A stretch of 64,000 nt of DNA from a virus: the IMG/VR virus record IMGVR_UViG_3300017761_003320, positions 32,001 through 96,000 of that record; one strand, given 5' to 3'. A program made the position numbers and the translations under genes. Shown piece by piece: positions 28,719-46,094 of this stretch (positions within the stretch are counted from its first letter, which is position 1; every line of letters starts with the position of its first letter). The notes beneath the pieces are model-generated. The model was given only the letters and a program-made list of their open reading frames with translations, was not told the DNA's origin and searched no databases.

Positions 28719-28802
28719 TGTTGCATATTTGTCACACCCGCCGCTAGATGAACCATTTGTAATATAAAAGGCCTTGACAGACCCGGTAGGGCCTGGTATA
28801 AT
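28719..28802 (+). promoter_or_regulatory. operator palindrome plus early promoter
   Basis: TGTTG-N8-TCACA at 28719-28736; TTGACA(28774)-17bp-TATAAT. Confidence 0.85.
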
Positions 28803-28825
28803 GAGGGTATCAAGAGGAGAGAAAG

Positions 28826-29059
28826 ATGGATCAAGTTTTTATAGTTCGCCACGGTGACCCCTACGAGCGGTACATAGTGGCGGTGGCCCGGTCTCTGGAA
28901 GAGGCCCGCCGTCTAGCCGACGAGGATGCCGAGCGCCAGGGCACGTGCCGATACGCCGAGTCGGCGTACTACGGCTACGTTGCGGTTCCGGTGGGCCAGC
29001 ACATAGACTATGAGGGCCACGAGGTCGGGCTGTGGGAAGAGGAAGATGCGGCCGCCTGA
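28826..29059 (+). CDS. hypothetical early protein
   Basis: GAGGAG RBS after promoter. Confidence 0.7.
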   Translation: MDQVFIVRHGDPYERYIVAVARSLEEARRLADEDAERQGTCRYAESAYYGYVAVPVGQHIDYEGHEVGLWEEEDAAA

Positions 29060-29062
29060 TAG

Positions 29063-29116
29063 TTAACCAGATTTAACCAAATAGGCCTTGACAAGCCGGC
29101 CACCACCTGGTATAAT
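29063..29116 (+). promoter_or_regulatory. early promoter cassette
   Basis: TTAACCAGATTTAACCAAATAGGCC-TTGACA-17bp-TATAAT. Confidence 0.9.
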
Positions 29117-29140
29117 GGTCACATCAAGAGGAGATAGAAC

Positions 29141-29395
29141 ATGGCACGCTACGCAATCCGCGGTCTAGACCTAGCCAGCGATACAACCGAGGACCTGGAT
29201 CGGTTCCTGATGGTGGCCAAGGGCCATAGTGTGACCGTTCGGATTACTTGGGACCTCGGCCCTAACGGTTACCCGGTTGCAACCTTTTACTCTTTCAACC
29301 TCGAGGATATGACCGCGGTGCTGCTGGACTACTGTGACAACGATCACCAGGCCATGGCCGTCTATATGGACATGGTCGAACGAGTGGCGGATTAA
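29141..29395 (+). CDS. hypothetical early protein
   Basis: GAGGAG RBS; GPNGYPVATF motif. Confidence 0.7.
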   Translation: MARYAIRGLDLASDTTEDLDRFLMVAKGHSVTVRITWDLGPNGYPVATFYSFNLEDMTAVLLDYCDNDHQAMAVYMDMVERVAD

Positions 29396-29400
29396 TTTAT

Positions 29401-29475
29401 AGGCGGGTAGCTCAGCGGTAGAGCATGGCCTTGATAAGGCCAGGGTCGGGAGTTCGAAACTCTCTCCGCCTACCA
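29401..29475 (+). tRNA. tRNA-Ile(GAT)
   Basis: TGGCC-TTGATAA-GGCCA arm, CCA. Confidence 0.93.
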
Positions 29476-29481
29476 TTATGA

Positions 29482-29556
29482 AGGCTGGTAGCTCAGAGGA
29501 AGAGCGAGGGACTCTTAACCCCTAGGTCGGGATCTCGGAATTCCCCCAGCCTACCA
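29482..29556 (+). tRNA. tRNA-Lys(CTT), variant T-loop
   Basis: AGGCTGG/CCAGCCT acceptor, CTCTTAA loop, T-loop CTCGGAA, CCA. Confidence 0.85.
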
Positions 29557-29572
29557 ATTTACAATATACTAT

Positions 29573-29665
29573 GGCGGAAGCGAGTTGCACCGACGGGTGC
29601 CATGGCTGTAGGTGAAGCCTCCGGGACACTCCTGGGAAAGTAGGTTCGAGTCCTACCTCCGCCCA
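29573..29665 (+). ncRNA. tRNA-like structured RNA without a canonical anticodon loop
   Basis: GGCGGA/TCCGCC closing stem, perfect T arm GTAGG-TTCGAGT-CCTAC, three internal hairpins. Confidence 0.6.
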
Positions 29666-29670
29666 CTTAT

Positions 29671-29825
29671 TACCCCGTATTCTAGACAAGCGGGGGAGAC
29701 CTAACAAGGCCAACAGAGGGGAAACCTTGTGAATACCGGATTGCTGACCTCGTTCGCGAAAGGGCTTAACCGGTAAGGTGTACGGAATGTCGACCCACCG
29801 GACTGGGATCTATGCAGGTGGGGTA
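29671..29825 (+). ncRNA. putative structured non-coding RNA
   Basis: No credible ORF; ends pair (TACCCC/GGGGTA); GAAA-capped hairpin candidates; lies between tRNAs and a terminator. Confidence 0.4.
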
Positions 29826-29826
29826 G

Positions 29827-29878
29827 TGGATCGAGCCGTTGTGCTGAGCCAGGCTCCTCAGCGGCTCGATCCATTTTA
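29827..29878 (+). terminator. intrinsic terminator
   Basis: TGGATCGAGCCG...CGGCTCGATCCA stem followed by TTTT. Confidence 0.7.
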
Positions 29879-29905
29879 CTTTGATTAATGATTTACGGAA
29901 AGTAA

Positions 29906-29959
29906 TTAACGAGAATTAACCAAATAACCCTGTACAGACCCGGTAGGGCCTGGTATAAT
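29906..29959 (+). promoter_or_regulatory. early promoter cassette
   Basis: TTAACGAGAATTAACCAAATAACCC-TGTACA-17bp-TATAAT; spacer identical to the 28774 promoter. Confidence 0.9.
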
Positions 29960-29984
29960 GGTCACATCAAGAGGAGATAGAAAC

Positions 29985-30068
29985 ATGACCATTCAAGACT
30001 TTCTAGAGGCTGCTGCTGGCGGGGTTCTCTTTCTGGTGACCGCCTTCTTCCTTGCCTTCGTGTTCTGA
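29985..30068 (+). CDS. 27-aa hydrophobic peptide
   Basis: GAGGAG RBS; MTIQDFLEAAAGGVLFLVTAFFLAFVF*. Confidence 0.55.
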   Translation: MTIQDFLEAAAGGVLFLVTAFFLAFVF

Positions 30069-30079
30069 GGAGACCGCAA

Positions 30080-30253
30080 ATGTTCGCACTGTTCGCAGGT
30101 CACAACCATTACCCGTCCGGTGGCTGGGACGACCTTATTGATACGTACCCCACCTTGCCAGAGGCCCAGCACGCTCGGAATGCAAGGAGCCACAAGTATG
30201 ATTGGTTCCAGATCGTAGACCTGGTCAAGGGTGAAATGGTCGAGCAATACTAA
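30080..30253 (+). CDS. small phage protein (57 aa, not in ORF track)
   Basis: GAGGAG RBS; FAG..YPSGGWDD...DWFQIVD. Confidence 0.65.
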   Translation: MFALFAGHNHYPSGGWDDLIDTYPTLPEAQHARNARSHKYDWFQIVDLVKGEMVEQY

Positions 30254-30416
30254 TGACCCACTCCCTAATCTGGTTTAGTGTGATGGGCCTTGCTACGGTG
30301 GCCTCTGTTATCTGGGCCATCGTAGACCATAACCCGTTGACCATCATCAGCATCGTATTCTGGTCGGCCGCGGCTCAAACGTGGCTGCTATCATACATTA
30401 ATGAAAGGGATTGAAC

Positions 30417-30740
30417 ATGGACAAGGTGATCCGCGACGGCGAGGTGGCCGTTCTCTATAGCCCCGACTTTGGAGCCGGCTGGTATACGTGGAATACGGAA
30501 CACCCGGCTATCCTCTATGACCCGACCGTGGTCAAGTGGGTGATGGATGGCAAGCCCTCTGGTGAGGCCCGGGTGCGCCTTGAGGCTACCCTGGATGAGA
30601 AGTACCCCCGCTGTTATCTGGGTGGTCTAAGGGACTTGCAGATCCGGTGGGTGCCTGTAGGTACTCGGTTCTACGTGGATGAATACGACGGCAATGAGAC
30701 TGTGGTATTGGATCAGGAACACGAATGGATGGTAGCATAG
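30417..30740 (+). CDS. conserved phage hypothetical protein
   Basis: VAVLYSPDFGAGWYTWN...FYVDEYDGNE. Confidence 0.75.
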   Translation: MDKVIRDGEVAVLYSPDFGAGWYTWNTEHPAILYDPTVVKWVMDGKPSGEARVRLEATLDEKYPRCYLGGLRDLQIRWVPVGTRFYVDEYDGNETVVLDQEHEWMVA

Positions 30741-30741
30741 C

Positions 30742-30812
30742 GCCGGTTTGGTCAAGCGACCCTCCGTCCCTCATAAGGACGCGGGAGGCAGGAGCGTTAC
30801 CTGCAGCCGGCT
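30742..30812 (+). tRNA. atypical tRNA with CAT anticodon
   Basis: GCCGGTT/AGCCGGC acceptor; D arm GGTC-AAGC-GACC; CGTCC-CTCATAA-GGACG; T arm GCAGG-AGCGTTA-CCTGC; no encoded CCA. Confidence 0.65.
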
Positions 30813-30863
30813 ATACATGATTGAGTAGCGTAAAATAATTACAACCGTAGTGTTACCCCTTGC

Positions 30864-30905
30864 GCCGGCAGAAACCACCTCACTTCGTGGGTTTTGCCGG
30901 TTTTT
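30864..30905 (+). terminator. intrinsic terminator
   Basis: CCGGCAGAAACC...GGTTTTGCCGG followed by TTTTT. Confidence 0.65.
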
Positions 30906-30940
30906 CGTCGTTTACTTTCAATGCGTTGCGTACCGGCCTC

Positions 30941-31026
30941 TGTGACAAAATTGCAACACCCACCCCGAATAGTTAACCAGATTTAACCAAATAGGCCTTG
31001 ACAGGTGCGGCCCTACCTGGTATAAT
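30941..31026 (+). promoter_or_regulatory. operator palindrome plus early promoter cassette
   Basis: TGTGA-N8-CAACA (30941-30958), TTAACCAGATTTAACC, TTGACA-17bp-TATAAT. Confidence 0.9.
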
Positions 31027-31048
31027 GGTACCATCAGAAGGAGAGAAC

Positions 31049-31252
31049 ATGAACGATAAGACCCTATACCAGCAGGCCGCTGACCTGACCGAGATACTCG
31101 TAACCAAGAACGACTATCCGTATGCGGCTGGCTACCTGACGGGCTTCATCCAGATGCTGCCCATCGAGTTGAACCTCACGGAAAAGCAACGCGATGCGCT
31201 GAGCCAACTGCTGATGCGGTCGGCTCTCGGTGCCGCTGGCAAACCTGTATAA
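31049..31252 (+). CDS. hypothetical early protein
   Basis: AAGGAG RBS; YAAGYL motif. Confidence 0.65.
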   Translation: MNDKTLYQQAADLTEILVTKNDYPYAAGYLTGFIQMLPIELNLTEKQRDALSQLLMRSALGAAGKPV

Positions 31253-31266
31253 AGGAGACAAACACC

Positions 31267-31725
31267 ATGGGCTTAGATATGTACCTGACCGCTCGCTGCT
31301 TTGTGCCGCGGCATGAAGTTGTGACGCGCCGCAAGGCTGATGCTGTGCTGAATCTGTTTGCAGAGGTTGACATCTCAAAGGTCGACGATTACTCTGGTGT
31401 GGCTGTCGAGTTCCAGGTGGGCTACTGGCGCAAGGCGAATGCCATTCACCGCTACTTCGTGGACGAGGTGTGGGGTGGGGCTGATGAGTGTAATCAGTTT
31501 GAGGTGGATCGCCTTCACCTTGAGCGGCTCCGCGACCTATGCAAGGCCGTGCTGACGGTGCCAGAGTCGGCTGAGGATAAGCTGCCTACCCAGGACGGAT
31601 TCTTCTTCGGCAATACGGAATACGGCGAAGGCTATCGTATGGACCTGACTCGTACCATCGAGATTATCGACCAGGCTCTGGTGCTTCCTCCGGAGTGGAG
31701 TTTCTATTATCGAGGGTCATGGTGA
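31267..31725 (+). CDS. conserved phage hypothetical protein (MGLDMYL/YWRKAN family)
   Basis: MGLDMYL, GYWRKANAIH, LPTQDGFFFG, YYRGSW. Confidence 0.8.
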   Translation: MGLDMYLTARCFVPRHEVVTRRKADAVLNLFAEVDISKVDDYSGVAVEFQVGYWRKANAIHRYFVDEVWGGADECNQFEVDRLHLERLRDLCKAVLTVPESAEDKLPTQDGFFFGNTEYGEGYRMDLTRTIEIIDQALVLPPEWSFYYRGSW

Positions 31726-31728
31726 GGA

Positions 31729-33274
31729 GTGAAAGACATGATTGACATTGAAAGGCAAAAGCGCCTTGAGCGCCGTCAAGAAAAACGTCGTGAAGCACGC
31801 GCGGCTCGCAGGGTGCTGACTAAGGCCATGACAGGAACAAAGCTGGCTATGGTCTACGAGTCGTGGGGTGTCGATGCTTTGACAGCTGAGGAGTTTGCAA
31901 TACAGGCTACAAAGCTGATGAGCCCTAATCAGGTGATGGCGCTGGCCCTGTTGCTGGAAAGGAAGCCTGCATGAGATGGAAATCTAAGGATAAGTTTGCA
32001 TGGCGCGATTGGTTCGCATGGTATCCGATCAAGACCGTTTGCGGTACCAATGTGTGGCTTGAATATGTCGAGCGGCGAATCTCCGAAACTGAATGGGAGG
32101 TGCTCCCTTATGTCCCTTATGGTCAAAGACTTCCGGAAGACTTTAACCGTAAGGTCGAATATAGACTAAGGGAGATTGTATGAGAACCCACTATCGCATA
32201 GAAGAAACCGCAGGGTCATATTATTTTCCGTGGGTGAACATCTTCGTCACCTATGACGATGCAAAGCGTGAGATGGATCAGGCTATTCGTTCTGGTCGCG
32301 CTAATCCGCAGCGTATTCGCATCGTCAAGTATGTACAGACTGGCTGGGGTCCACCTGAGCGTGTGCCCGTTGATGGAGGACAAGTATCATGAGCGAGACA
32401 AGCCATTTCTATGATAAAACGATTGGACTCTGTAAATATAAGGGAAGGGTATATGAGGTAGTCTCCAAGCAAGGAGATCATCTATGGTATGAAGTTAGCT
32501 GTCGTACATACCTGCAGGATAAGCTTGTGATGGAATCTGTCTTTAGCGACTTCCTGAAAGGACAATACTTGTATCTAAGTGGTCAAGACCTCTCTAGGGC
32601 CATCAAGCGAGTGTGTAAATGAGCGGTATGGGTGACATGAAGTTTACGACAGCGGGTGATATGATGGGCTGGGGTCCACCTGATCTACCGGCTCGTCTAG
32701 AGTCATGGGCTCAGAACGAGGAGCTGGTGGCTAGCGGCGTTATGACCGCGCATGGTCAAGACTGTATGGATGTAGCTGAGCAATTACGAGCCGCATTGTT
32801 TCTAATAGATGAGTATCAAACAGAATTGATTGAATGTCATAACTATATGGATAAGATGCGTGCTGCTCTTCGTGATATGGCCAAGCATATCTGGCGCGGA
32901 GATTGGGACAAGCTTGAGCCTGAGACTCGTGCGCTATTGGGAGAAAAGGAATGACCGATAAGCTACGGCTTCTTATCGAGCAGTTATCCGCAGCATCTGG
33001 TGGCATCGGCTTCGTGCTAGCACAAGAGTGTAAGCAGGCCATGCAAGAGGCTTTGATTGAACACGAGCGGCTACAAGATAAATGCAACGCGCAGGCTATG
33101 ATTCTGCGCCGGCTAACGCCTGACAAGTATCCTAATACGTATTTCATTCATGGTGGATTAGGCGAGAAGGATCAAAACGGTATGCCCGATAAGATTATGG
33201 TCGTGCCAGCCTATGGGGTCGACTTCTCCTACATCTATACCCGTGAAGAAAGGACGATCGGACCTGAATGGTAA
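31729..33274 (+). other. run of six short translationally coupled hypothetical genes (31729-31974, 31971-32183, 32180-32392, 32389-32622, 32619-32954, 32951-33274)
   Basis: Consecutive ATGA overlaps; second ORF carries WFAWYPI. Confidence 0.65.
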
Positions 33275-33275
33275 T

Positions 33276-34037
33276 ATGACTATAAAGATAGATTGGTTAG
33301 GTAAGATAGGCTACGGCGATATCTGTAGCCCTATCGCATATGCACATAATCTATCTGATAAGCTTGATGAGCATGTGAGACTTGTATTTCATTGGTCACA
33401 TTCACAAGGTGTTAGAACATACTCCGAAGATCCTGAAACCATAGACGATAGGGCTAGTCGCATATTTGAATTGATGCGACCAGCTAATGCGTCATTGAAA
33501 CATGTTTATAATTCATCGATGATATTTGATGAAGATAATCCGCATACCAATTATAAATTTTATTATGACGCTCATAATCACTGGTGGTCGACTGTAACTC
33601 ATAAGTGTACATCGAACCGTATAGTGATATGCCCACCGACTGAAAATATGATTCCGTTTCCTCGAAACAAAGCATGGAAGGATCCGCTCGGTGAAAAGTG
33701 GCTGGCTGTTATTGAACATCTAGATGCGGATGTTGTTTCCTATCGAACACCTATGAACGAGCTGATTCAAAAACTGCTCGGCTGTCGTCTATTCGTGGGA
33801 TATCACGGAAGCTGTGCTTGGGTTGCAAGACATCTTCGAGTCCCGATGGTATTGTTTTCCAAGAATCAGAATATCACTAGAAAAATGTTTTCTGCGAAGG
33901 TTGGTGGTGATATCTCCATTCTATCGGATATTGATCAGCTAGTGCAGGAATGCACCAACAAGGTTCATGAATTTGACTCGGCCCTATTGAAATATTCTTA
34001 TTCCACCGATTTTCTATCGAGCATCATTCATTGTTAA
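33276..34037 (+). CDS. GT9-like glycosyltransferase
   Basis: IGYGDI; LFVGYHGSCAWVARHLRVPMV resembles the GT9 G.DSG..H.A..L..P motif. Confidence 0.55.
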   Translation: MTIKIDWLGKIGYGDICSPIAYAHNLSDKLDEHVRLVFHWSHSQGVRTYSEDPETIDDRASRIFELMRPANASLKHVYNSSMIFDEDNPHTNYKFYYDAHNHWWSTVTHKCTSNRIVICPPTENMIPFPRNKAWKDPLGEKWLAVIEHLDADVVSYRTPMNELIQKLLGCRLFVGYHGSCAWVARHLRVPMVLFSKNQNITRKMFSAKVGGDISILSDIDQLVQECTNKVHEFDSALLKYSYSTDFLSSIIHC

Positions 34038-34675
34038 AAGTTTTCATAGGCTATGATTCCACAGAATCAATTGCATGGGATGTATGTCGATATTCGATTC
34101 TGCATAATTCTCCGCATGGATCTGTCGAGGTGCATCGTCTAATCGGATCACCAGACGGATGGAAACGCATATCATCCGAAGGCCAGTCTACAGAGTTTAC
34201 CTATTCTCGTTTTCTTGTTCCATACCTTAGCGGATATGAAGGAACAAGTTTATTCGTCGATTGTGACTTTCTGTTTCTAGATGACGTCAACCTGCTATCG
34301 AGTTATCTGACAGGCTCGGCCGTAGCCTGCTGCCAGCATCCTGACTATGTTCCACGTTCTATAAGCAAGATGGATGGGCAGACTCAAGTTGGATATCCGC
34401 GTAAGAATTGGTCATCGCTCATGTTGTTTGATAATGCTAAGTGTCGAGTGCTGACTCCAGATTATGTTGCTAAGGCTTCGGCCAAGGAATTGCATCGTAT
34501 GGAGTGGACCGAGTCTGTTGATAGCATACCGCTAGAGTGGAATACACTAGAAGGTTATTATCACTTTGAAAATCCGCGAGCTGTGCATTATACTGATGGT
34601 GGACCATGGCACCAGACATATACAGAAAATCGCTATACAAAACTGTGGTTGGATTATTATAAAAATCTAAAATAA
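34031..34675 (+). CDS. GT8-like glycosyltransferase
   Basis: VFIGYD, STEFTYSRFLVP, VDCDFL, RKNWSS, HYTDGGPW. Confidence 0.85.
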   Translation: MLKVFIGYDSTESIAWDVCRYSILHNSPHGSVEVHRLIGSPDGWKRISSEGQSTEFTYSRFLVPYLSGYEGTSLFVDCDFLFLDDVNLLSSYLTGSAVACCQHPDYVPRSISKMDGQTQVGYPRKNWSSLMLFDNAKCRVLTPDYVAKASAKELHRMEWTESVDSIPLEWNTLEGYYHFENPRAVHYTDGGPWHQTYTENRYTKLWLDYYKNLK

Positions 34676-34697
34676 AAGTACGTGGCCACGTACTTTT
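34674..34697. terminator. perfect 24-bp palindrome, probable terminator
   Basis: AAAAGTACGTGG/CCACGTACTTTT. Confidence 0.6.
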
Positions 34698-34784
34698 TAC
34701 AAAATACATTATAAATGAGTGTAGATGCTTAGGCCTCAGCAATAATGCTCGTACCCTTTATAGCATCTACATTGGAGAATAATT

Positions 34785-36302: not shown

Positions 36303-36328
36303 AAGCCAAACTTTAATCTAAATTACCA

Positions 36329-36357
36329 TGTACACCACATTCATTGCATGATATAAT
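36329..36357 (+). promoter_or_regulatory. promoter
   Basis: TGTACA-17bp-TATAAT. Confidence 0.65.
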
Positions 36358-36363
36358 ATATGC

Positions 36364-36836: not shown

Positions 36837-36843
36837 CTTGCCA

Positions 36844-36872: not shown

Positions 36873-36895
36873 GGTTGCATCATAAGGAGATTGAC

Positions 36896-37999: not shown

Positions 38000-38011
38000 T
38001 ACATAATAATA

Positions 38012-38087: not shown

Positions 38088-38108
38088 AATTGATTTGAGG
38101 AGAAAAAT

Positions 38109-39062
38109 GTGATTGATCGTAGAAATATGCTAATTGGATGTGCTGCTCTAACTGCATCTGCATCGGCCAATGCAAATCAAAACGAACTTAGTTTGATTGT
38201 TGGATCCGGTATTGGTGGATCTTCTGACGTATCAACTAGAATACTTGCGGCCCGGTTATCTACAGTCGGTATTGATGCAAGGGTTTCAAATAGACCAGCA
38301 GGTAATGGTGTTGAGGCTGCAATTCATATTCTATCGCAGCCCGCTAATAGTAATGCTTTATTATCTAACGGGCTTGGTGGAATTTTCTTAGCACCTGCTA
38401 GAGAGCGTCTTGCCTATGATAGTGATAGTCTTGCTCCAGTATGTATGTTTAGCATTGCATCTTTCGTATTTGCAGTCAAATCATCCTCTAGGTTTAAAAC
38501 GATTCATGATTTAATTGCGGCAGGAAAATCTGGCTCGATATCCATAGGTAATGGTGGCGCTGAGACACAATATACTGTAGCAAAATTTGCTGAGGCTTCA
38601 GGAACAAATGTTGTCAATGCAGTTTATAGAAGTGGTGGTATTGCAACACAGGATTTGATTGCGGGTGTGACTGATGCTGCATATATCTCCGTCGCATCAG
38701 CCGCCGGTCTTGTCTCTGCTGGTGAGGTAAGAATGTTGGCACATACTAATGTTGATGGTTCACATATTCCTGGATTTACTGAAGTGCCTCATATATTTAC
38801 GATTGGATCTAATGATCCTGGACTCTTATCTTATGGTTATCATGGCCTATATGCATCGCGTAACATGCCATCAACATTGATTAACGATATTGCTTCTAAG
38901 ATTGACCGTGTATGTCGAGATGATAAATTTATTGATGATCATAAGACTAGAGGTATGATGCCATTATTTAAAGGGCCGAATGATCTTAAAGAACATCATA
39001 AGATTATTCAAAATAATTTGGTTATTCCTTATATGGAATGGGCAAGGAGAACTTCAAAATGA
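38109..39062 (+). CDS. Bug/TctC tripartite tricarboxylate transporter substrate-binding protein
   Basis: Tat-like DRRNML signal; GGSSDVSTR, NRPAGNG, YRSGG...DLIAG. Confidence 0.85.
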   Translation: MIDRRNMLIGCAALTASASANANQNELSLIVGSGIGGSSDVSTRILAARLSTVGIDARVSNRPAGNGVEAAIHILSQPANSNALLSNGLGGIFLAPARERLAYDSDSLAPVCMFSIASFVFAVKSSSRFKTIHDLIAAGKSGSISIGNGGAETQYTVAKFAEASGTNVVNAVYRSGGIATQDLIAGVTDAAYISVASAAGLVSAGEVRMLAHTNVDGSHIPGFTEVPHIFTIGSNDPGLLSYGYHGLYASRNMPSTLINDIASKIDRVCRDDKFIDDHKTRGMMPLFKGPNDLKEHHKIIQNNLVIPYMEWARRTSK

Positions 39063-39301
39063 TAAATGATTTAAGAATAGTTCAAGACCATGGTTGGATT
39101 CAACAACCCGACGGTACGTTGGCTTGGGGCCCAACTAGATTTTGGATGGAATCTTTGGGTGATGATGGTCAATGGACTCAGCTTAAGGTTCATATGATTA
39201 ATGAACAACCTAATCCAGCAGATCCTCTTTATGAGCCATCTGATAATGGTCTAGGTTCTGAGGAGACTCTCGCGCATCGCACGAGAATGACTCTATCATA
39301 A
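39059..39301 (+). CDS. hypothetical protein
   Basis: AAGGAG RBS. Confidence 0.55.
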   Translation: MINDLRIVQDHGWIQQPDGTLAWGPTRFWMESLGDDGQWTQLKVHMINEQPNPADPLYEPSDNGLGSEETLAHRTRMTLS

Positions 39302-39307
39302 TAGTTA

Positions 39308-39398
39308 CGGCGTGAGGGCTGGTGCTCACCAGGAGCTTATACCTCCTTAGGCAGCTGATTACTGTTGGGATAGGGTTCGATTCCCTACGCGCCGACCA
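39308..39398 (+). tRNA. atypical tRNA with TAT (Ile) anticodon and long variable arm
   Basis: CGGCGTG/CGCGCCG acceptor, D arm GGGC-TGGT-GCTC, AGGAG-CTTATAC-CTCCT, TAGGG-TTCGATT-CCCTA, ACCA. Confidence 0.8.
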
Positions 39399-39402
39399 AT
39401 TT

Positions 39403-39476
39403 GCGGGGTTCGTATAATGGCATTATCACAGCCTTCCAAGCTGAGGACACGAGTTCGATTCTCGTACCCCGCTCCA
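39403..39476 (+). tRNA. tRNA-Gly(TCC)
   Basis: GCGGGGT/ACCCCGC acceptor, CTTCCAA loop, TCCA. Confidence 0.95.
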
Positions 39477-39618
39477 CCTCTTTCGGAACAACCAGAATTC
39501 CGAAAGCATTTTTGGGAATGGTTTGATTCACTACCGGCTAAGACTAGAAAGACATTTCACGAATATCCGTTAGATATGGCCACACTCTATTTTGAAAATA
39601 AGGTATGGCCCTTAGTGC

Positions 39619-39707
39619 GGGGAAGCTGCTCGGATGGCGGACGGGCACCGGACTGTAAATCCGGCACATAAGAAACGCAGTAGGTTCGAATCCTACCTTC
39701 CCCACCA
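39619..39707 (+). tRNA. tRNA-Tyr(GTA)
   Basis: CCGGA-CTGTAAA-TCCGG arm, long variable region, CCA. Confidence 0.9.
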
Positions 39708-39718
39708 TATATAAGATT

Positions 39719-39979
39719 ATGACATATTCTCATGAAATGCTTCGCACCATAGCTCGTTGCATGTTCATAACACCCCTGAATCATATTCATGCCGGTTATG
39801 ATTGGCCTGCAAAGCAGAGAGAATGGGAATCTCTATCAAATAAAGATAGACAGATTTGGTTTGATAAAGTTATAGTTTGGTTGCAAGAATTAGAATCTAA
39901 AATGCCTGATTCTTATGATTTCTATATCAATCATTGGATAGCAGATTTAGATAATAGAAATCATCTTTTTAGTGAATAA
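39719..39979 (+). CDS. hypothetical protein
   Basis: ORF fills gap. Confidence 0.5.
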   Translation: MTYSHEMLRTIARCMFITPLNHIHAGYDWPAKQREWESLSNKDRQIWFDKVIVWLQELESKMPDSYDFYINHWIADLDNRNHLFSE

Positions 39980-40926
39980 TATTTTTCAATCGCATGGTCG
40001 ATAATATGACCAGCAAGATTTTGCAAAGAACATGCTTCCGTCATTGGGAAATTTGCTGAAGGATTAACTTCACATAGTTTTAATCCATCTTTGGTTGGGA
40101 ATATATCAATTCTTCCCCATTCAATATTCAATGCATTTAAAGAATTTTCCACAAGATTTCTAATCTCAGTTGACGTTCTTATGGGAAGCTGCACTCTTCC
40201 TTCATCATTCGCAAAGGCAGCTTTAAATTTTGAATAGCCTGTAAATGATGGTGGAATAGCTTGCATGGTGCTTTGAATATTACGACCTCGCACACAATGC
40301 GCTGTTAATTGATAATTAAGTTCAATAAATTCCTGAGCAATCACAGTAGTATTATGGATGCTATATGGATTTTTTGGATCTGATGATAGTCGTCGAGAGA
40401 ATTGAGGATTCGGAAGGAATTTAATTAGATTACCTGCAATCATTTGTAATTCAAATTCATCTTTGCAGAGATAAACTCTTTCCGATCCAGCCGCAAATCT
40501 CCATTTAATTACACATGGATATCCTATTAAATCTCCTATTTCTTCGGCCGCATCATTATCTAATAGATTTACAAATATAGTTTTGGGTGTGGGTATTCCT
40601 GCCTTTACATATTTTTCGTGGGCAATGATCTTATCAAGAGCATCAATATGAGGTTCTAAATCTGTTACAAATATGCTACCATGGTTTTTTAATATGGATA
40701 ATTTTCTTAAATTTTCCGGATTCCAGTGAGCATGTCTCATGATAATAAGATCAGGTGGAATTATTTGTCGCCCATCTATGAATACATTATCACCAACCAC
40801 AGTGCACATTTCAGGATGCACATGAGTTGCATTTAAACCACGTCTTTCCATCTCATTAAGAAACCGCCAAGTTTCATAAAAATGAGATTTAGGCCAAGGA
40901 CTTGTTAATAACCATGCATTGATCAT
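39961..40926 (-). CDS. RimK-like ATP-grasp ligase
   Basis: DK.......GIPTPKT, GYPCVIK, AQEFI, IDI...LCEVNPS. Confidence 0.85.
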   Translation of the reverse strand: MINAWLLTSPWPKSHFYETWRFLNEMERRGLNATHVHPEMCTVVGDNVFIDGRQIIPPDLIIMRHAHWNPENLRKLSILKNHGSIFVTDLEPHIDALDKIIAHEKYVKAGIPTPKTIFVNLLDNDAAEEIGDLIGYPCVIKWRFAAGSERVYLCKDEFELQMIAGNLIKFLPNPQFSRRLSSDPKNPYSIHNTTVIAQEFIELNYQLTAHCVRGRNIQSTMQAIPPSFTGYSKFKAAFANDEGRVQLPIRTSTEIRNLVENSLNALNIEWGRIDIFPTKDGLKLCEVNPSANFPMTEACSLQNLAGHIIDHAIEKYYSLKR

Positions 40927-41804
40927 TTGAACATTCTATCAATATATGATACTATATCTTTGGCATGATTTGATCCAAAATAATGGTCTCTACCAGAAAA
41001 CCCACCAGGAGAATTTACTTCACATATTACATATCCATTTGAGGATTTTAGAATATCAATTTTTGCTATTTCAATATTTAATGCATTTACTGCATCAATT
41101 ATAATAGTTTTCAATTTATCATTGATTTTATATTGTTCTCGTATACCATCATCTCTATTATTTGATATAAAAAAATCAACATTAGATTTAGGATATCTAA
41201 TTTGCGCTGCGATTGGTATTCTACCAATAACCCATGCTACTATGGTTGGCCCAGTGATTAATTCTTGTACCATAACTTTTTTTTGATATGGAAAGCGTAT
41301 TTGTATTTTTTTGCAATGTATGTAGATATCATCCAAGGTTTTACATAAGGCTACAAGTTCACCCCTTTGCGATAATATTGGTTTAATCACTACTGGTAGA
41401 TGTAGATTTTCTAAAACCATATCATCAAAAGGTATATCTATTGTGAGTGTTTTTGGTATTCTAACATTAGATTTATTTAAAATTTCTAATTGTTTCAATT
41501 TATTAGCACACATCAAATGTGCATCAATATTATTGATGCATTTAATTTTTAGTAATTTTAGCTTATTGATAAAATCGATACTGCTGCCATTGGTAGTTCT
41601 TATTAATACAATATCTGGTAAATTTTTTGGTATAGTTAGATTTGGATTTACTATTGAGGCATCAAACCCTAAAAATCTAAATTCATCAAGCAATCTTATA
41701 TTTTCATATTGACCACCTGGAACACCTTCAGATATTAAGGTATCACGATTAATTAGTTTTTCATCAATTGGTGCTTCTGATGTTAATATCCAAGCTTTCG
41801 CCAT
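40923..41804 (-). CDS. RimK-like ATP-grasp ligase
   Basis: ANK...IPKT, LPVVIKP...RGE, VQELI, IDIL...ICEVNSPGGF. Confidence 0.88.
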   Translation of the reverse strand: MAKAWILTSEAPIDEKLINRDTLISEGVPGGQYENIRLLDEFRFLGFDASIVNPNLTIPKNLPDIVLIRTTNGSSIDFINKLKLLKIKCINNIDAHLMCANKLKQLEILNKSNVRIPKTLTIDIPFDDMVLENLHLPVVIKPILSQRGELVALCKTLDDIYIHCKKIQIRFPYQKKVMVQELITGPTIVAWVIGRIPIAAQIRYPKSNVDFFISNNRDDGIREQYKINDKLKTIIIDAVNALNIEIAKIDILKSSNGYVICEVNSPGGFSGRDHYFGSNHAKDIVSYIDRMFK

Positions 41805-41807
41805 AAA

Positions 41808-42257
41808 TTAATTACACCAGCTTGTTTTGGCCTCACCAAAATATTCGCGCGCCAGACCTTCTGCGATTAATGAAGAACGCAGAGAGCGATTATCAATCAT
41901 TATATCACCAAGAACTCGGCCGCCATATTTGTCCCAATCCATAAGCATCACTTGTACACTAGATGCAGATGCGATTGCATTTTTGGTAAAATCTGTGGCT
42001 CGCTGCCCCATGATTGCTTCTTGCGGACATTGGGCGCGATGACCTTTTTCAGGAGTATCAACCCCATAGACCCTGACCGATATGCGTTGTGCAATCGGAG
42101 CAGGAATCCATGGAGCTTCAAATTGAACAGTATCCCCATCGACGACCCGGATCACTTTCCACGTATATGCTATGGCTTCTGGTGTTCTACCTAAAGCTGC
42201 AATAGCATAGATTAAAGTGGCCGCAAGAACGGCGATGAAAAATCCTGCTCTAATCAT
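41808..42257 (-). CDS. thermonuclease (SNase-like), secreted or membrane-anchored
   Basis: RVVDGDT, RVYGVDTPE, DKYGGRVLG. Confidence 0.92.
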   Translation of the reverse strand: MIRAGFFIAVLAATLIYAIAALGRTPEAIAYTWKVIRVVDGDTVQFEAPWIPAPIAQRISVRVYGVDTPEKGHRAQCPQEAIMGQRATDFTKNAIASASSVQVMLMDWDKYGGRVLGDIMIDNRSLRSSLIAEGLAREYFGEAKTSWCN

Positions 42258-42571
42258 TTTGTTTTACGCTTACCCTTAGTAACAGGTGCTGGCGCAGCTA
42301 CCTTAGGTGCGCGAGGCTTGCGAATAACCTTAGCCTTCACCTCAGCCTTTACTTCTTCAATAGCAGCTTTGGCATCTTCGACATTGACCTTGCCGTCTTT
42401 GTTGACATCAAGCGGCGTCTTGGTTGCAACCGCGGCCTGAATATCTTCAGCATTTACCTTGCCGTCCTTATTGACGTCTAGCTTCGCAGTCGCTTCGGCC
42501 TTCACTTCTTCAAACTTTTTCTCAGCCTCAACTTTGCGTAGGCCAAGCCATGTTAGCAATTTAATAAACAT
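42254..42571 (-). CDS. EF-hand-like repeat protein
   Basis: Two LDVNKDGKVN.ED copies; basic C-terminal tail. Confidence 0.7.
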   Translation of the reverse strand: MFIKLLTWLGLRKVEAEKKFEEVKAEATAKLDVNKDGKVNAEDIQAAVATKTPLDVNKDGKVNVEDAKAAIEEVKAEVKAKVIRKPRAPKVAAPAPVTKGKRKTK

Positions 42572-42680
42572 ATCTTCCTCCACTTATACGCTTATGCGTA
42601 CCAATATGTATCCAACACGAGTGGTTAAGCATTGTCCTCCGATCTGGCTATCTAGTAATGTAGAAAGCCATGTTTAACCC

Positions 42681-42708
42681 TGTACATTTGAATATAACCT
42701 GGTATAAT
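42681..42708 (+). promoter_or_regulatory. promoter
   Basis: TTAACCC-TGTACA-16bp-TATAAT. Confidence 0.65.
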
Positions 42709-42727
42709 GGCTTTGAAGGAGACAGAC

Positions 42728-42931
42728 ATGTATAGTATAGTTAGGATCCAGGTTCAATTTCTTTCCAGCAATGGTTTACCAATAAGTGATTGGAGAGATC
42801 AATCACATCTTAACTATCCTACAGATCGTCTTATTACCAGTCACATGCAGACGGCCAAGAGATGCTGGAAAGATGCGCGTGTGCGTGCTGTCGATGAAAA
42901 TGGCCGAGTGGTGGATATGCTCTATGCTTGA
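42728..42931 (+). CDS. hypothetical protein
   Basis: AAGGAG RBS; RVRAVDENGRVVDML motif. Confidence 0.65.
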   Translation: MYSIVRIQVQFLSSNGLPISDWRDQSHLNYPTDRLITSHMQTAKRCWKDARVRAVDENGRVVDMLYA

Positions 42932-43571
42932 TCCAGAACAGCTATATTATGATGGTAAGCTGTGGGGTGCAAAGGATCATAAATTTTGGTGTCTATTATC
43001 GACACTCCTTTTAAAATGCAAACCCAAATCAATACTCGAATTGGGTGCAGGTAGAAGCACTACCTTCTTCGCTGAATATGCATATGAGACCAATGTACCA
43101 TTTGTGTCCATTGAGGAGTCTCCAGTATGGTATGCTGAAATATATCGAGACCTTAGGCTCATGTTTTTACCTGGTACCTACATTAGACATGTGCCTGTGG
43201 ATCCAGCGACGGATTGGTATGATAGTGAACACGCGGATAATGCGATGGATATTACACCGTATGATTTGGTCATGATTGATGGACCAACAGGAAGAGGTAA
43301 GCGTGATTATAGAGGCAACATGCTTGTGGAGCGAGCCATACGTAAGGCCAGAATGATCATAGTCGATGATACACAGCGTGCCGATTGTCATGCCTTCTCT
43401 AAGCATCTGGCCAAGGCAAAAGGGTTTACGGAAATTCATATTCCTTACATGCAGCGCCGAAGGGGCACGACTACTGGATCCGTGGTATATGATGAAAATA
43501 CCGTAACTATTTTGACATCGGAATGGTCTGATATCGTATCATTAATGGTCCGAGATATTTACGGTAATTAA
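42924..43571 (+). CDS. class I SAM-dependent methyltransferase
   Basis: ILELGAGRST, YDLVMIDGP, IIVDD. Confidence 0.8.
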   Translation: MLDPEQLYYDGKLWGAKDHKFWCLLSTLLLKCKPKSILELGAGRSTTFFAEYAYETNVPFVSIEESPVWYAEIYRDLRLMFLPGTYIRHVPVDPATDWYDSEHADNAMDITPYDLVMIDGPTGRGKRDYRGNMLVERAIRKARMIIVDDTQRADCHAFSKHLAKAKGFTEIHIPYMQRRRGTTTGSVVYDENTVTILTSEWSDIVSLMVRDIYGN

Positions 43572-43586
43572 TTTACAACCGTTAGG

Positions 43587-43670
43587 TGTGATATTTTTGT
43601 CACACCACCCAGATGATTAACCAAAATTAACCAAATACCCCTGTACATCCCTCCCGGGCCGTGGTATAAT
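43587..43670 (+). promoter_or_regulatory. operator palindrome plus early promoter cassette
   Basis: TGTGA-N8-TCACA, 12 bp, TTAACCAAAATTAACC, TGTACA-17bp-TATAAT. Confidence 0.9.
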
Positions 43671-43693
43671 GGTACCATCAAGAGGAGGTTCCG

Positions 43694-43876
43694 ATGGAAT
43701 ACAATGTCGAAACTGAACGGCTACTTAATGATTTCGACCTTGAATGGGCGGAATATGTTGCTGGCCGTAAGGTAACTACGGAAGAGGCTATGGAGCTAGT
43801 CCGTGACTATTTGGATTGGGTGAAAACGCTGGAGGATAATGATGTTGGCCAAGAAGTCTATATCGAAGCCGCGTGA
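43694..43876 (+). CDS. hypothetical acidic early protein
   Basis: GAGGAGG RBS. Confidence 0.7.
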   Translation: MEYNVETERLLNDFDLEWAEYVAGRKVTTEEAMELVRDYLDWVKTLEDNDVGQEVYIEAA

Positions 43877-43961
43877 TCCCTCCTGGAGGGTTCTCCGCGC
43901 GTTGGGGGTAAAGGTGGTACGTGCCAAGCGCGGCCGGGGATCCTATACCCGCAAGGGTCGG

Positions 43962-44045
43962 TGTGATAAAAATGTCACACCCTCTGGGTATGCCGGTTAA
44001 CCCGCCAATTTTCCTCTGTACAAGCCCCGCGGCCTGTGGTATAAT
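43962..44045 (+). promoter_or_regulatory. operator palindrome plus early promoter
   Basis: TGTGA-N8-TCACA (43962-43979), TGTACA-17bp-TATAAT. Confidence 0.85.
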
Positions 44046-44075
44046 GGTCGCATACAACATGAAAGGTATGACACA

Positions 44076-44636
44076 ATGTCTATGAAACGTGACGATAAGG
44101 TACAGATTATCACCGACCTGCTGACTGCTGGTAACGGCCGCTTTACCGTGGCCGAACTTCTGGTCGCCGCAGGTACCGAGCGACGCTCTCGCTCGGCCAT
44201 CTTTCTGGCCCGCGAGCAGGGTATCGGCCTCGAGCCGATCCGCGACGGTCGCGAGGTGATTGCCTACCTTGACGCCAAGATTGGTTCGGCGCAGCGCGCC
44301 GCCGCCAATACGGCTGCTAAGGTGGCCAAGGCCGTCAAGCCTGCTAAGGTGGTCAAGGCGGTCGCCCCTGCTAAGGCGGTCAAGGTGGCTAAGGTGGCCA
44401 AGGCTCCGACTGCGGTCAAGCTGCCCAAGGGCGCCACTCCAGTCCCTGGTCAGCCTACGCAGTATGACATGCCGACGCCTAAGCGGTCTAGCTTCCGTGG
44501 GCCGCTTAGCCCGACCGAAAAGCTGGCTCAGATGCTCCAAGAAGATGGTCCTGCCATCGTGGCTATGGGCAAGCGTGATCTCGGCCCAGAGGGTGCCCTG
44601 GAGATTGAGGAAATCACCGAACAGAAGGTGGCCTAA
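44076..44636 (+). CDS. hypothetical protein with histone H1-like Ala/Lys/Pro repeats
   Basis: AKVAKAVKPAKVVKAVAPAKAVKVAKVAKAP. Confidence 0.7.
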   Translation: MSMKRDDKVQIITDLLTAGNGRFTVAELLVAAGTERRSRSAIFLAREQGIGLEPIRDGREVIAYLDAKIGSAQRAAANTAAKVAKAVKPAKVVKAVAPAKAVKVAKVAKAPTAVKLPKGATPVPGQPTQYDMPTPKRSSFRGPLSPTEKLAQMLQEDGPAIVAMGKRDLGPEGALEIEEITEQKVA

Positions 44637-45544
44637 TGGCCACTTTCCGACCCATGCTAGCCTGTCAATATGACAAGGCTACGGTGCGCTGGCCAATGTT
44701 GGCCAGCCCCAAGCTTGACGGTATTCGCTGTCTGGCTTTTGACGGTGTGGCTTGGGCTAGGTCTATGAAGCCCATCCGTAACCGCTTTATTCAAGCATGG
44801 TTTAAGGATAACGCCGAGGCCCTCGAAAAGTTTGACGGCGAGTTAATTGTCGGGTCTCCAAACGCCAAAGATGCGTTTAATGTAACCTCCTCTGCTGTCA
44901 ACAGCGAGGACGGCCGGCCTGCCTTCACCTTCTGGGTATTCGACCGTGTAGGTACAGCCGACTATACCAAACGGTTTGACATTCTCCGTAATGAGGATAT
45001 CAAGATTCCTTGGTGGCAGGATCGCCTGCGGATCGTACCTAATTTCCTTGTATTCAATGAGGCTGAACTCGCAACCTATGAAGCCAAAGCCTTAGATGAA
45101 GGTTATGAGGGTGTTATGTTGCGCCATCCGCAGTCTCCTTACAAGCAAGGTCGATCCACACCTAAGGAAGCTTACCTTCTCAAGGTCAAGCGGTTTTCTG
45201 ATGGCGAGGCTGTGATTGTCGACCTACTGGAGGAAATGCGGAACGATAATCCGCTTACCACCAACGAGTTGGGTCTAGGCAAGCGGTCAAGCCATCAGGC
45301 TAACCTAGTGGCTAAGGGTACCATGGGTACCCTATGCGTTCGTGGTATCAATGGCGAGTTTGATGGTATCGAGTTCGGCATCGGGTCTGGCTTTGATCAG
45401 GCTACACGACAGATGCTATGGGACGGCCGACAAGATATGTTGGGTAAGATTGTCACCTATAAATACTTTGCCATCGGCACCAAGGACAAACCTCGGTTTC
45501 CGGTGTTCAAAGGATTCCGTGACGCATCTGACATGGGGGAATGA
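44636..45544 (+). CDS. lig: ATP-dependent DNA ligase (minimal type)
   Basis: KLDGIR, FDGEL, FWVFD, EGVMLR, LLKVK, PRFPVF. Confidence 0.95.
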   Translation: MATFRPMLACQYDKATVRWPMLASPKLDGIRCLAFDGVAWARSMKPIRNRFIQAWFKDNAEALEKFDGELIVGSPNAKDAFNVTSSAVNSEDGRPAFTFWVFDRVGTADYTKRFDILRNEDIKIPWWQDRLRIVPNFLVFNEAELATYEAKALDEGYEGVMLRHPQSPYKQGRSTPKEAYLLKVKRFSDGEAVIVDLLEEMRNDNPLTTNELGLGKRSSHQANLVAKGTMGTLCVRGINGEFDGIEFGIGSGFDQATRQMLWDGRQDMLGKIVTYKYFAIGTKDKPRFPVFKGFRDASDMGE

Positions 45545-45545
45545 G

Positions 45546-46019
45546 GTGCTTGTAGAATATCGCCGATCACAACCTTGGCTTGTCGACCTTTTAAAGGGTG
45601 ACCCTGTTCGCCCGAATATTTCCATCGAGGATAGGTTCGCATTTAATAATGCGGTTTTCATCTATTGGGTGGATGAAAAACCTGCGGCCATATGTTGCGC
45701 CTCGCTGATGGACTATATTCCAATTGACGAAGGTGAACTGTTTGAGGAGGGCAATGAACACTATGACCATGCTTGCCTATACACGATCTGGTCATTGCAG
45801 CGCGGCGGAGCACGCAAGCTGGTTCAGGCATTGCTGCCACACCTCAGGATGAAATATGCTGTGGCGCGGATTATTACCTTATCCCCAAACACTGAAATGG
45901 CGAAAAAGTTTCACCTCAGCAACGGTGCTGTAATATACCGTAATAATTACGAGGAAGAAACGGTTAACTATGAGTACGAATTCTGTGACATAAATGTCAC
46001 AATGAGCCGGTGTGACTAA
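45546..46019 (+). CDS. conserved T4-like hypothetical protein, GNAT-like
   Basis: DPVRPNI, YTIWSLQRGGAR, TLSP.TEMAKKFHLSNGA; GTG start inferred. Confidence 0.65.
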   Translation: MLVEYRRSQPWLVDLLKGDPVRPNISIEDRFAFNNAVFIYWVDEKPAAICCASLMDYIPIDEGELFEEGNEHYDHACLYTIWSLQRGGARKLVQALLPHLRMKYAVARIITLSPNTEMAKKFHLSNGAVIYRNNYEEETVNYEYEFCDINVTMSRCD

Positions 46020-46094
46020 TATATCACACCGGTCAGATAATTAACCAAAATTAACCAAATACCCCTGTACAACCTACCCTAACCCTGGTATAAT
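45984..46094 (+). promoter_or_regulatory. tandem operator palindromes plus early promoter cassette
   Basis: TGTGA-N8-TCACA at 45984-46001 and 46011-46028, TTAACCAAAATTAACC, TGTACA-17bp-TATAAT. Confidence 0.9.

Follow-up and report, generated by a model that had tools for sequence, protein, structure and literature searches.

Palindromes and promoters in the window

The window, a 64,000-nucleotide stretch of viral DNA from IMG/VR record IMGVR_UViG_3300017761_003320 (positions 32,001 to 96,000), carries six 18-bp palindromes, all of them found where the original prediction had placed them. They lie upstream of five near-identical promoters of the sigma70 type. In the following list, positions are those of the window and the palindromes have no assigned strand.

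28719..28736, no strand: palindrome TGTTGCA-TATT-TGTCACA, in which the left half-site is the alternative one; gap of 37 bp to the -35 box of the 28774 promoter
28774..28802, + strand: sigma70-type promoter, TG-extended TTGACA-17-TATAAT; its palindrome is the 28719 site
29088..29116, + strand: example of a same-class promoter without palindrome
30941..30958, no strand: palindrome TGTGACA-AAAT-TGCAACA, in which the right half-site is the alternative one; gap of 39 bp to the -35 box of the 30998 promoter
30998..31026, + strand: sigma70-type promoter, TG-extended TTGACA-17-TATAAT; its palindrome is the 30941 site
43587..43604, no strand: exact palindrome TGTGATA-TTTT-TGTCACA, flanked by GG/CC; gap of 37 bp to the -35 box
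43614..43693, + strand: cassette body with two phased copies of TTAACCAAA (A-tract or UP-like) and the -35 box TGTACA at 43642
43962..43979, no strand: exact palindrome TGTGATA-AAAA-TGTCACA; gap of 37 bp to the -35 box
44017..44045, + strand: TG-extended promoter TGTACA-17-TATAAT; its palindrome is the 43962 site
44076..44636, + strand: gene of a 186-aa protein, immediately following a palindrome-bearing promoter; candidate phage DNA binder
45984..46001, no strand: second, distal palindrome TGTGACA-TAAA-TGTCACA, within the 3' end of the upstream ORF; gap of 64 bp to the -35 box
46011..46028, no strand: proximal palindrome TGTGACT-AATA-TATCACA, flanked by CCGG; gap of 37 bp to the -35 box
46066..46094, + strand: TG-extended promoter TGTACA-17-TATAAT; its palindromes are the 46011 and 45984 sites

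The exact pattern TGTGA-N8-TCACA occurs four times in the window (43587, 43962, 45984 and 46011) against an expectation of 0.07, and none of 100 shuffled sequences reached four. The whole genome of 155 kb contains five exact palindromes and no match to the reversed control pattern. Taken alone as two-mismatch matches, the variant sites at 28719 and 30941 are not significant (40 found versus 37.7 expected); we regard them as real members of the set because of their promoter register (gaps of 37 and 39 bp) and their common TGTTGCA/TGCAACA half-site. In about 2 Mb of related viral DNA this half-site is the third commonest partner of TRTCACA (16 cases, other variants at most five each), and it occurs repeatedly in unrelated contigs. 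The full consensus, (G)TGTGAYA-WWWW-TRTCACA(C), is longer than was first read.

From the proximal palindrome to the -35 box the gaps at the five promoters are 37, 39, 37, 37 and 37 bp, in agreement with the predicted 37-39 bp. With an assumed transcription start 7 nt past the -10 box, the sites are centred at -81.5 to -83.5, close to the -82 that had been proposed. The cassette at 43614 continues with an extended -10 element, TGGTATAAT (to 43670), followed by a conserved 5' leader that includes a Shine-Dalgarno sequence, and five further copies of the cassette body start at 28746, 29060, 29903, 30970 and 46038. At the 43962 site the DNA up to the -35 box is unlike that of the other cassettes, yet the spacing is unchanged. 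The 44017 promoter drives the gene of the 186-aa protein and a DNA ligase-like gene, and downstream of the 46066 promoter lie a 41-aa ORF, GP88 and a dNMP kinase-PhoH-exonuclease-gp33-gp59-gp32 block.

The window has about 13 promoters of this class, of which only five bear the palindrome. Besides the example listed above, palindrome-free promoters were found at 29931, 36329, 36844 and 42681 on the + strand and at 28524 and 28280 on the - strand; another on the + strand has its TGGTATAAT starting at 24578.

Conservation and helical register

In public viral contigs, TGTGAYA-WWWW-TRTCACA accompanies no fewer than 30 non-redundant promoters of T4-like relatives. A first database-wide scan for palindrome plus promoter, in which palindrome-to--35 gaps of 34-42 were preselected, returned 27 loci, every one with this consensus, even though the intervening DNA is fully diverged, the GC content ranges from 33 to 47% and the core proteins are only 30-60% identical. 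Unbiased scans covering gaps of 4-72 placed 27 loci at 35-37, five at 46-47, two at 58 and one each at 17 and 61. The three main classes are thus separated by steps of about one helical turn, with one A-tract unit added per step. The second, distal site is also kept in relatives, at gaps of 64 or 70-71.

Of 100 non-redundant same-class promoters, 31 have an upstream site in these registers, versus two with a site in an equal downstream span; among 121 viral sites, 83% are not covered by an ORF of 80 aa or longer, versus 19% of random positions, and since many sites come from related contigs these counts are not fully independent. Such steps of a helical turn might also arise mechanically, by duplication of the 10-11-bp A-tract units.

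The motif is common to unrelated phage types, namely T4-like myoviruses and relatives of HTVC023P-type podoviruses, and in other phage groups the site stands at other positions relative to promoters and in arrays, as is usual for operators that share a single regulator. Among cultured relatives it is absent from five myoviruses, from eight HTVC023P-type or related podoviruses and from Aeromonas phage 44RR2.8t, in which a single isolated hairpin was seen; consequently, it has no tie to a known host or to an experiment. The early promoters of Melnitz are of a different type and so offer no equivalent element for comparison.

A putative operator in an early-promoter cassette

At palindrome positions 6 and 13 the viral sites carry the pairs C,A (13 sites), T,G (11) and C,G (6), and never T,A. 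One GTCACA half is invariably present, and the other half is often ATCACA, in either orientation. Bacterial hairpins of the same pattern are different (T,A 28, C,G 24, mixed 20). As C.A mismatches are as common as G.U pairs in the viral sites and the perfectly pairing T,A is absent, selection appears to act on the sequence and not on hairpin pairing.

Conservation, helical phasing and this selection on sequence lend good support to the earlier suggestion that a host or phage regulator would act from about -82. We consider it reasonably probable that the palindromes are operators of a sequence-specific, probably dimeric regulator, and that they form the upstream module of an early-promoter cassette of the PeSL (promoter-early stem-loop) type which tunes a subset of promoters. 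Such a cassette would consist, in order, of the operator, at least two phased A-tract units, the -35 box, the extended -10 element and the common leader with its Shine-Dalgarno sequence. The regulator would dock near -80, -91 or -102, always on the same helix face. Its link to RNA polymerase would be the phased A-tracts, serving as an intrinsic bend or as alpha-CTD sites. The five of about 13 presumably early promoters concerned could then be tuned, most simply by a class-I-type activator or modulator.

Stem-loops and recombination

PeSL cassettes have been described in T4-type phages (Arbiol et al. 2010, PMC2839356; Comeau et al. 2014, PMC4122927). The elements found here share with them the order of inverted repeat, AT-rich tract, strong sigma70-like promoter, Shine-Dalgarno sequence and start codon, the presence of many copies in small-ORF regions of a T4-like genome, and a conserved cassette of about 60-100 bp. 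The stems of published PeSLs are generic (polyG/polyC or A3-4G3...C3T3-4) and differ between phage pairs (PMC2839356, PMC4122927), and in RB49 the stem-loops terminate transcription (PMC2839356). The palindromes could accordingly work at the RNA or single-strand level, where they would terminate or attenuate read-through, or cap and stabilize the 3' end of the upstream mRNA, with sequence conservation as a by-product of cassette copying. As RNA, the four exact sites form stable hairpins (-8 to -17 kcal/mol, z -3.5 to -5.7) at the place that the stem-loop has in a PeSL, some stems are lengthened by GG/CC or CCGG flanks, and three sites lie just past or across the upstream stop codon; the 46011 palindrome contains it.

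We nevertheless judge this explanation unlikely. No T-run follows any site (CC(N) stands there instead) and a terminator scan called none of them. The two variant sites barely fold, one at -1.9 kcal/mol and the other at -8.3 kcal/mol only through an alternative pairing (z -1.8), and the 28719 site lies between divergent promoters, so that a terminator would have no same-direction upstream gene to act on. The pair counts at positions 6 and 13, unlike those of bacterial hairpins, also speak against a role in pairing. In contrast to published PeSL stems, one specific 18-mer is kept here across deeply diverged phages and even other phage families, with the same 14 bases retained where the cassettes are otherwise unalignable. 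Mismatches and an alternative half-site are tolerated, and the distance to the -35 box is quantized in helical turns, which a terminator does not need.

Alternatively, the palindromes might be recombination sites, either targets of a site- or structure-specific enzyme or cruciform-prone hot spots, moving promoter-plus-ORF cassettes between phages in the manner of PeSL mini-circles. PeSL crossovers in RB49 and phi1 were mapped within or beside the stem-loop (PMC2839356), the sites flank small variable ORFs in GC-rich islands, and unrelated phage types have the motif in common. This possibility appears very unlikely to us: neither a recombinase nor another shared enzyme was found beside the sites, in AT-rich relatives they precede conserved genes (DUF6267, AAA_5, the hsp20 region) and not ORFans, and recombination does not require a fixed helical phase with the promoter. 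A PD-(D/E)XK exonuclease does recur beside them and is the only neighbour family in common with this phage, but the motif-free Melnitz and HTVC027P have it too.

The CRP hypothesis and the phage cyclase

The original prediction read the palindromes as CRP-like, possibly cAMP-dependent sites fed by a cyclase encoded by the phage itself:

9650..11707, + strand: gene of a class III adenylate/guanylate cyclase, from which the cAMP was proposed to come

A host protein of the CRP family with cAMP would then be a class I activator near -82, and cAMP from the late FecR-CHASE2 cyclase would feed back on the early promoters, including those of a superinfecting relative. Class I CRP sites have the form TGTGA-N6-TCACA and are centred at -61.5, -71.5, -82.5 or -92.5. 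There is resemblance in several respects: the inverted half-sites are TGTGA/TCACA, as in sites of the CRP/FNR family; the palindromes lie upstream on one helix face in one-turn steps, with centres near -81, -91 and -102, close to the class I positions -82.5 and -92.5; A-rich DNA of the alpha-CTD type precedes the -35 box; and in two relatives a motif-bearing promoter is located directly 3' of the cyclase gene.

We regard this reading as extremely improbable, because the spacer is 8 bp at every site (six of six here and 30 of 30 non-redundant sites of relatives), versus the 6 bp that define the family, which makes a core of 18 bp and not 16; because the inner bases YA...TR and the TGTTGCA variant are foreign to CRP sites; because a domain search of the complete phage genome found no cNMP-binding (PF00027) or Crp-type HTH (PF13545) gene; and because the expected co-occurrence of motif and cyclase fails in both directions. 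The cyclase is present without the motif in 22 of 23 cyclase-bearing IMG/VR records (four of the five near-complete ones), as well as in Melnitz and HTVC008M, which have no palindrome site, and the motif is present without a cyclase domain in 45 of 47 motif-bearing records, including all five near-complete ones. The distribution of the cyclase therefore does not follow that of the motif, and the cAMP feedback idea has no comparative support. A CRP-like protein of the host would still be a possible binder.

Search for the regulator

Searches in the phage and elsewhere returned no protein that binds the putative operators. In a neighbourhood search, ORFs within 600 bp of the sites at 113 loci were clustered and the recurrent families were run against Pfam and PHROG. 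Represented among these families were an exonuclease, a kinase-like protein and a small terminase; the rest were small proteins that matched neither Pfam nor any named PHROG. No DNA-binding domain was recognizable among them. The first genes after 37 motif-bearing promoters are heterogeneous, with no common regulator, and BLAST-level comparison of contig fragments gave no shared candidate DNA-binding gene, either adjoining the sites or in the phage. The 186-aa protein is predicted to have an N-terminal three-helix, HTH-like region followed by an Ala/Lys-rich tail, in a model of low confidence (pLDDT 56); this low confidence and its restriction to the close clade speak against it as the general binder. 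GP88, downstream of the double site, gave no structural or functional lead.

On the host side, a strict-pattern scan of 185,579 species genomes for a regulon found 75 scattered matches, mostly terminator-like hairpins, and no genome with several loci. In a census of TGTGA-N8-TCACA in 201 Alphaproteobacteria any signal was swamped by noise, and literature searches for the motif gave no match. A host factor is somewhat more likely than a phage factor as the binder, given that unrelated phage types carry the site and that the search for a shared candidate DNA-binding gene came up empty.

Implications for early transcription

Early transcription in T4 is regarded as constitutive, and in T4-like phages the early promoters usually count as simple sigma70 promoters of great strength whose firing is unconditional. 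We tentatively put forward, as a possibility somewhat short of even, that TGTGAYA-WWWW-TRTCACA, with its alternative half-site TGCAACA, is an undescribed operator of unrelated uncultured aquatic phage families (T4-like myoviruses, relatives of HTVC023P-type podoviruses and others), read by one widespread regulator and serving in the T4-like clade as a class-I-type activator site that phased A-tracts place at whole helical turns. The regulator might be a global factor of a so-far uncultured host group, or the product of a gene exchanged among phages.

If this is true, a conditional layer is added to early transcription. The presence of the putative operator on only some early promoters across the clade implies at least two classes of early-gene control, and the output of one class would be set by some signal, be it the state of the host or a phage product. 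As the same site is found in unrelated families of the same waters, it may mark a common host group or a shared regulator, and would then aid host assignment and the reading of regulation in uncultured phages.

Comparison with known regulatory sites

The TGT-N12-ACA geometry noted in the original prediction holds, and with their AT-rich centre the sites resemble both TyrR boxes (TGTAAA-N6-TTTACA) and PpsR/CrtJ sites. When bound at upstream sites, TyrR activates sigma70 promoters by way of the alpha subunit. The half-site here is TGTGAY, not TGTAAA, and TyrR and PpsR/CrtJ are confined to particular bacterial groups. Another parallel is provided by p4 of phage phi29, a phage-encoded regulator of the early-to-late switch that recognizes an inverted repeat near -82 of the late A3 promoter and works via the alpha-CTD of RNA polymerase. 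The present palindromes are likewise inverted repeats centred near -82; they differ from p4 sites in sequence and spacing, and no p4-like gene was found in this phage.

When oriented, the consensus TGTGATA-WAWA-TGTCACA resembles the Pho box consensus, CTGTCATAWAWCTGTCAY. The Pho box, recognized by PhoB, is made of direct 7-bp repeats with an 11-bp period, has a fixed orientation and overlaps the -35 box. It was rejected, as the orientation of the palindromes relative to the promoter is random (13 against 11) and they stand at about -81 with the -35 box intact. The motifs of the ARG box, Fur, LexA, NrdR, IHF, Fis and CtrA were ruled out by geometry or orientation. TTAACC repeats look CtrA-like in this phage only, and relatives use other phased A-tract units.

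Palindromic sites and the promoter cassette

The window holds four exact copies of the palindrome TGTGA-N8-TCACA (0.07 expected; no shuffle gave as many as four), and the whole genome holds five, with no match to the reversed control pattern. With its flanks the consensus reads (G)TGTGAYA-WWWW-TRTCACA(C). Matches carrying two mismatches show no excess by themselves (40 found, 37.7 expected), and the two degenerate sites at 28719 and 30941 would not stand out in this way. What upholds them as real, in agreement with the original prediction, is their promoter register and a common variant half-site: they lie 37 and 39 bp from their -35 boxes, as the exact sites do, and both carry one variant half, TGTTGCA/TGCAACA. 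When the 7-mers opposite TRTCACA over a WWWW spacer were tabulated in approximately 2 Mb of related viral DNA, the partners were TGTGACA (143), TGTGATA (97) and TGTTGCA (16), with all others at 5 or fewer, so that TGTTGCA is a recurrent alternative half-site. The 18-bp sites of the window are:

28719, palindrome with one variant half
30941, palindrome with one variant half
43587, exact palindrome
43962, exact palindrome
45984, exact palindrome
46011, exact palindrome

The fifth exact site (genome 123712-123729, outside the window; TGTGATAGATGTGTCACA) is located within a 541-aa ORF, has a non-AT spacer and probably does not belong to the regulatory set.

The five palindrome-bearing promoters consist of TTGACA or TGTACA, a 17-bp spacer and TATAAT with a TG extension. 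They are part of a repeated cassette of 80-87 bp that further comprises a pair of phased TTAACCAAA units and a common leader with a Shine-Dalgarno sequence; the palindrome is present on only 5 of the approximately 13 promoters of this class in the window. We infer the transcription starts, as well as the early timing of these promoters and the sign of their regulation; with the start taken 7 nt past the -10 box, the palindrome would be centred near -81.5.

This cassette has the anatomy of the promoter-early stem-loop (PeSL) cassette of T4-type phages (PMC2839356, PMC4122927). The PeSL stem-loop is generic and differs between phage pairs (PMC2839356, PMC4122927), and was shown to terminate transcription (PMC2839356). 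Unlike PeSL stems, the inverted repeat described here keeps one specific sequence over deep divergence and in helical phase, and the cassette is consequently classed as a variant of the PeSL type, whose upstream module appears to behave like an operator. TyrR boxes have the same TGT-N12-ACA geometry as these palindromes, and phi29 p4 has its site at -82; both resemblances are functional.

Relatives and helical register

A scan of IMG/VR for the palindrome followed, after a gap of 34-42 bp, by a -35 box and an extended -10 box yielded 27 loci. All 27 share the longer consensus and an AT-rich centre; between palindrome and -35 box, sequences from different groups cannot be aligned. This phage has TTAACCAAA as its phased unit, some relatives have GTGAAAAA and others GTGCAAATA, and GC content spans 33 to 47%. 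By their proteins the contigs are T4-like relatives, some close (70-99% identity) and many distant (30-60%, core genes). In the distant relatives, the genes 3' of the element encode DUF6267 or an AAA_5 ATPase, or are those following regA near hsp20 or following the cyclase; the element is thus not tied to a single gene.

Gaps of 4-33 and 43-72 bp, which lie outside the range set for the first scan, were scanned separately.

Table. Single sites by gap to the -35 box
35-37 bp: 27 loci
46-47 bp: 5 loci
58 bp: 2 loci
61 bp: 1 locus
17 bp: 1 locus

Distal second sites are found at gaps of 64 or 70-71 bp, and the longer gaps hold one or two additional A-tract units. A site in these registers lies upstream of 31 of 100 non-redundant promoters of the class in the DNA analysed, against only 2 sites in the same span downstream. 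Across the survey, many sites derive from related contigs.

DNA operator or RNA hairpin

The palindrome could act as a hairpin in RNA, and the four exact sites indeed fold well (-8 to -17 kcal/mol); the two variant sites do not, and none of the window's sites has a T-run on its 3' side or a terminator-like call. At the sixth palindrome pair, 30 non-redundant cassette sites carry C,A (13), T,G (11), C,G (6) and T,A (0). GTCACA forms one half in all 30, and the other half, usually ATCACA, may be the promoter-proximal or the promoter-distal one; in orthologous sites of different contigs the weak half is found on opposite sides (viral contig locus L005 versus L013 and L016). On the transcribed strand the C.A mismatch is therefore as frequent as the G.U wobble and the fully pairing T,A form is absent, a substitution pattern indicating selection on letters rather than on pairs. 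Bacterial matches to the same pattern are mostly long-stemmed, T-tailed terminators (T,A 28; C,G 24; mixed 20). Selection on letters would be expected of a dimer if it required a single strong half-site and accepted a weaker partner. It agrees with the position of the 28719 site between divergent promoters, where a terminator would have nothing to act on, and with the location of 83% of 121 non-redundant viral sites outside any ORF of at least 80 aa, as against 19% of positions drawn at random from those loci.

The cAMP hypothesis and candidate binders

The original prediction raised the possibility that the sites are CRP-like targets through which cAMP from the phage's own cyclase (9650-11707, + strand) would feed back on early promoters. 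All CRP/FNR-family sites have a spacer two shorter than the 8 bp found at every site here; functionally the palindromes resemble class I CRP sites, but they lack the spacing that defines these. A search for a CRP-family gene revealed no cNMP-binding or Crp-type HTH domain in the phage genome. Homologues of the cyclase are present in the cultured relatives Methylophilales phage Melnitz (42% identity) and Pelagibacter phage HTVC008M (38%), both with zero sites. Only one of 23 cyclase-bearing IMG/VR records has a site (a single one), and four of the five with a completeness of 90% or more have none. Conversely, a cyclase domain was found in 2 of 47 motif-bearing records and in none of the five whose completeness reaches 90%; these five are not T4-like, and every motif-bearing T4-like contig available was a fragment of 3-40%. 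The co-occurrence of motif and cyclase across related phages, proposed with the prediction as its check, thus failed in both directions, and by this measure the cAMP feedback link is not supported. A CRP-like protein of the host is still a possible binder.

The neighbourhood search of the motif loci, made at BLAST level on contig fragments, found no common DNA-binding gene adjoining the sites. The sole candidate binder encoded by the phage is a 186-aa protein (44076-44636, just 3' of the 43962 site), limited to close relatives (16 clusters, 66-99% identity). It has an HTH-like three-helix N-terminus, the structure model being weak, and an Ala/Lys/Val-rich tail resembling those of histone H1 or AlgP and encoded by 27-nt and 9-nt tandem repeats (44314-44439).

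Distribution beyond the T4-like clade

A palindrome-only scan of IMG/VR returned at least 119 loci, and a slightly stricter pattern 75 loci in 596 Gb of bacterial genomes, the enrichment over bacteria being qualitative only. Among the matches listed were more T4-like contigs, and the largest other group was related to HTVC023P-type podoviruses. In the latter the site is positioned otherwise, for example just 3' of the -10 box and 5' of a small Cys-rich gene, and four contig loci carry arrays of it.

Table. Palindrome arrays in HTVC023P-type relatives
L060: 6026, 6079, 6451
L100: 6600, 7004, 7057
L124: 8181, 8574, 8627
L102: 1133, 1487, 1564

The arrays comprise one standard site just 5' of the Cys-rich gene (MFEA...RGPYKT...) and two TGCAACA-variant sites exactly 53 bp apart. 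The motif was absent from five of five cultured myovirus relatives and, with one mismatch permitted, from eight of eight cultured podoviruses and related records. Phage Mosig, like Melnitz and HTVC008M, is a motif-negative relative. A BLAST match in Aeromonas phage 44RR2.8t is a lone isolated hairpin. Among the relatives checked, two unrelated phage types therefore bear the site in uncultured members only, a distribution that would fit either a factor belonging to a certain group of hosts or a regulator gene moving between phages.

Genome and gene context

The source genome is complete in IMG/VR (155,201 bp, with a terminal repeat of 123 bp), and the window spans its positions 32001-96000. The major capsid protein shares 66-70% identity with its counterparts in Stenotrophomonas phage DLP_6 and in Synechococcus, Pelagibacter and Methylophilales T4-like myoviruses. 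Features of the window include:

38109-39062, TctC/Bug-family periplasmic receptor gene
39961-42583, - strand, low-GC (0.33) island with two RimK-like ATP-grasp genes, a staphylococcal-nuclease-like gene and a small EF-hand/dockerin-like protein
43.5 to 57 kb, + strand, rightward block of small ORFs, DNA ligase-like, GP88, dNMP kinase, PhoH, PD-(D/E)XK exonuclease, KdsA, cupin, gp33, gp59 and gp32 genes

The rightward block corresponds to the prereplicative block that is usual in these phages. The promoter cassettes lie in islands of 50-54% GC (26000-32000 and 44000-48000) in a genome of approximately 43% GC, which suggests acquisition of these early regions from a higher-GC phage, or exchange with one. 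Burkholderiales and some Alphaproteobacteria have a greatly enlarged TctC/Bug family, and its member here is a possible hint to the host.

The only double palindrome precedes the gene of the GP88-family protein (PF17338; 46228-46917), which is 90-99% identical among relatives, its neighbours being 50-80% identical. Directly 5' of it, a 41-aa ORF (46101-46226) conserved in six relatives starts 6-7 nt past the -10 box of the 46066 promoter, so that its mRNA would be leaderless. A tmRNA-like gene (52572-52881) was called directly 3' of the exonuclease gene, and the corresponding position in Melnitz carries an annotated tmRNA. A 77-aa protein that matches no Pfam family (50852-51085) is 85-100% identical across relatives, an unusually high conservation for a small phage ORF.
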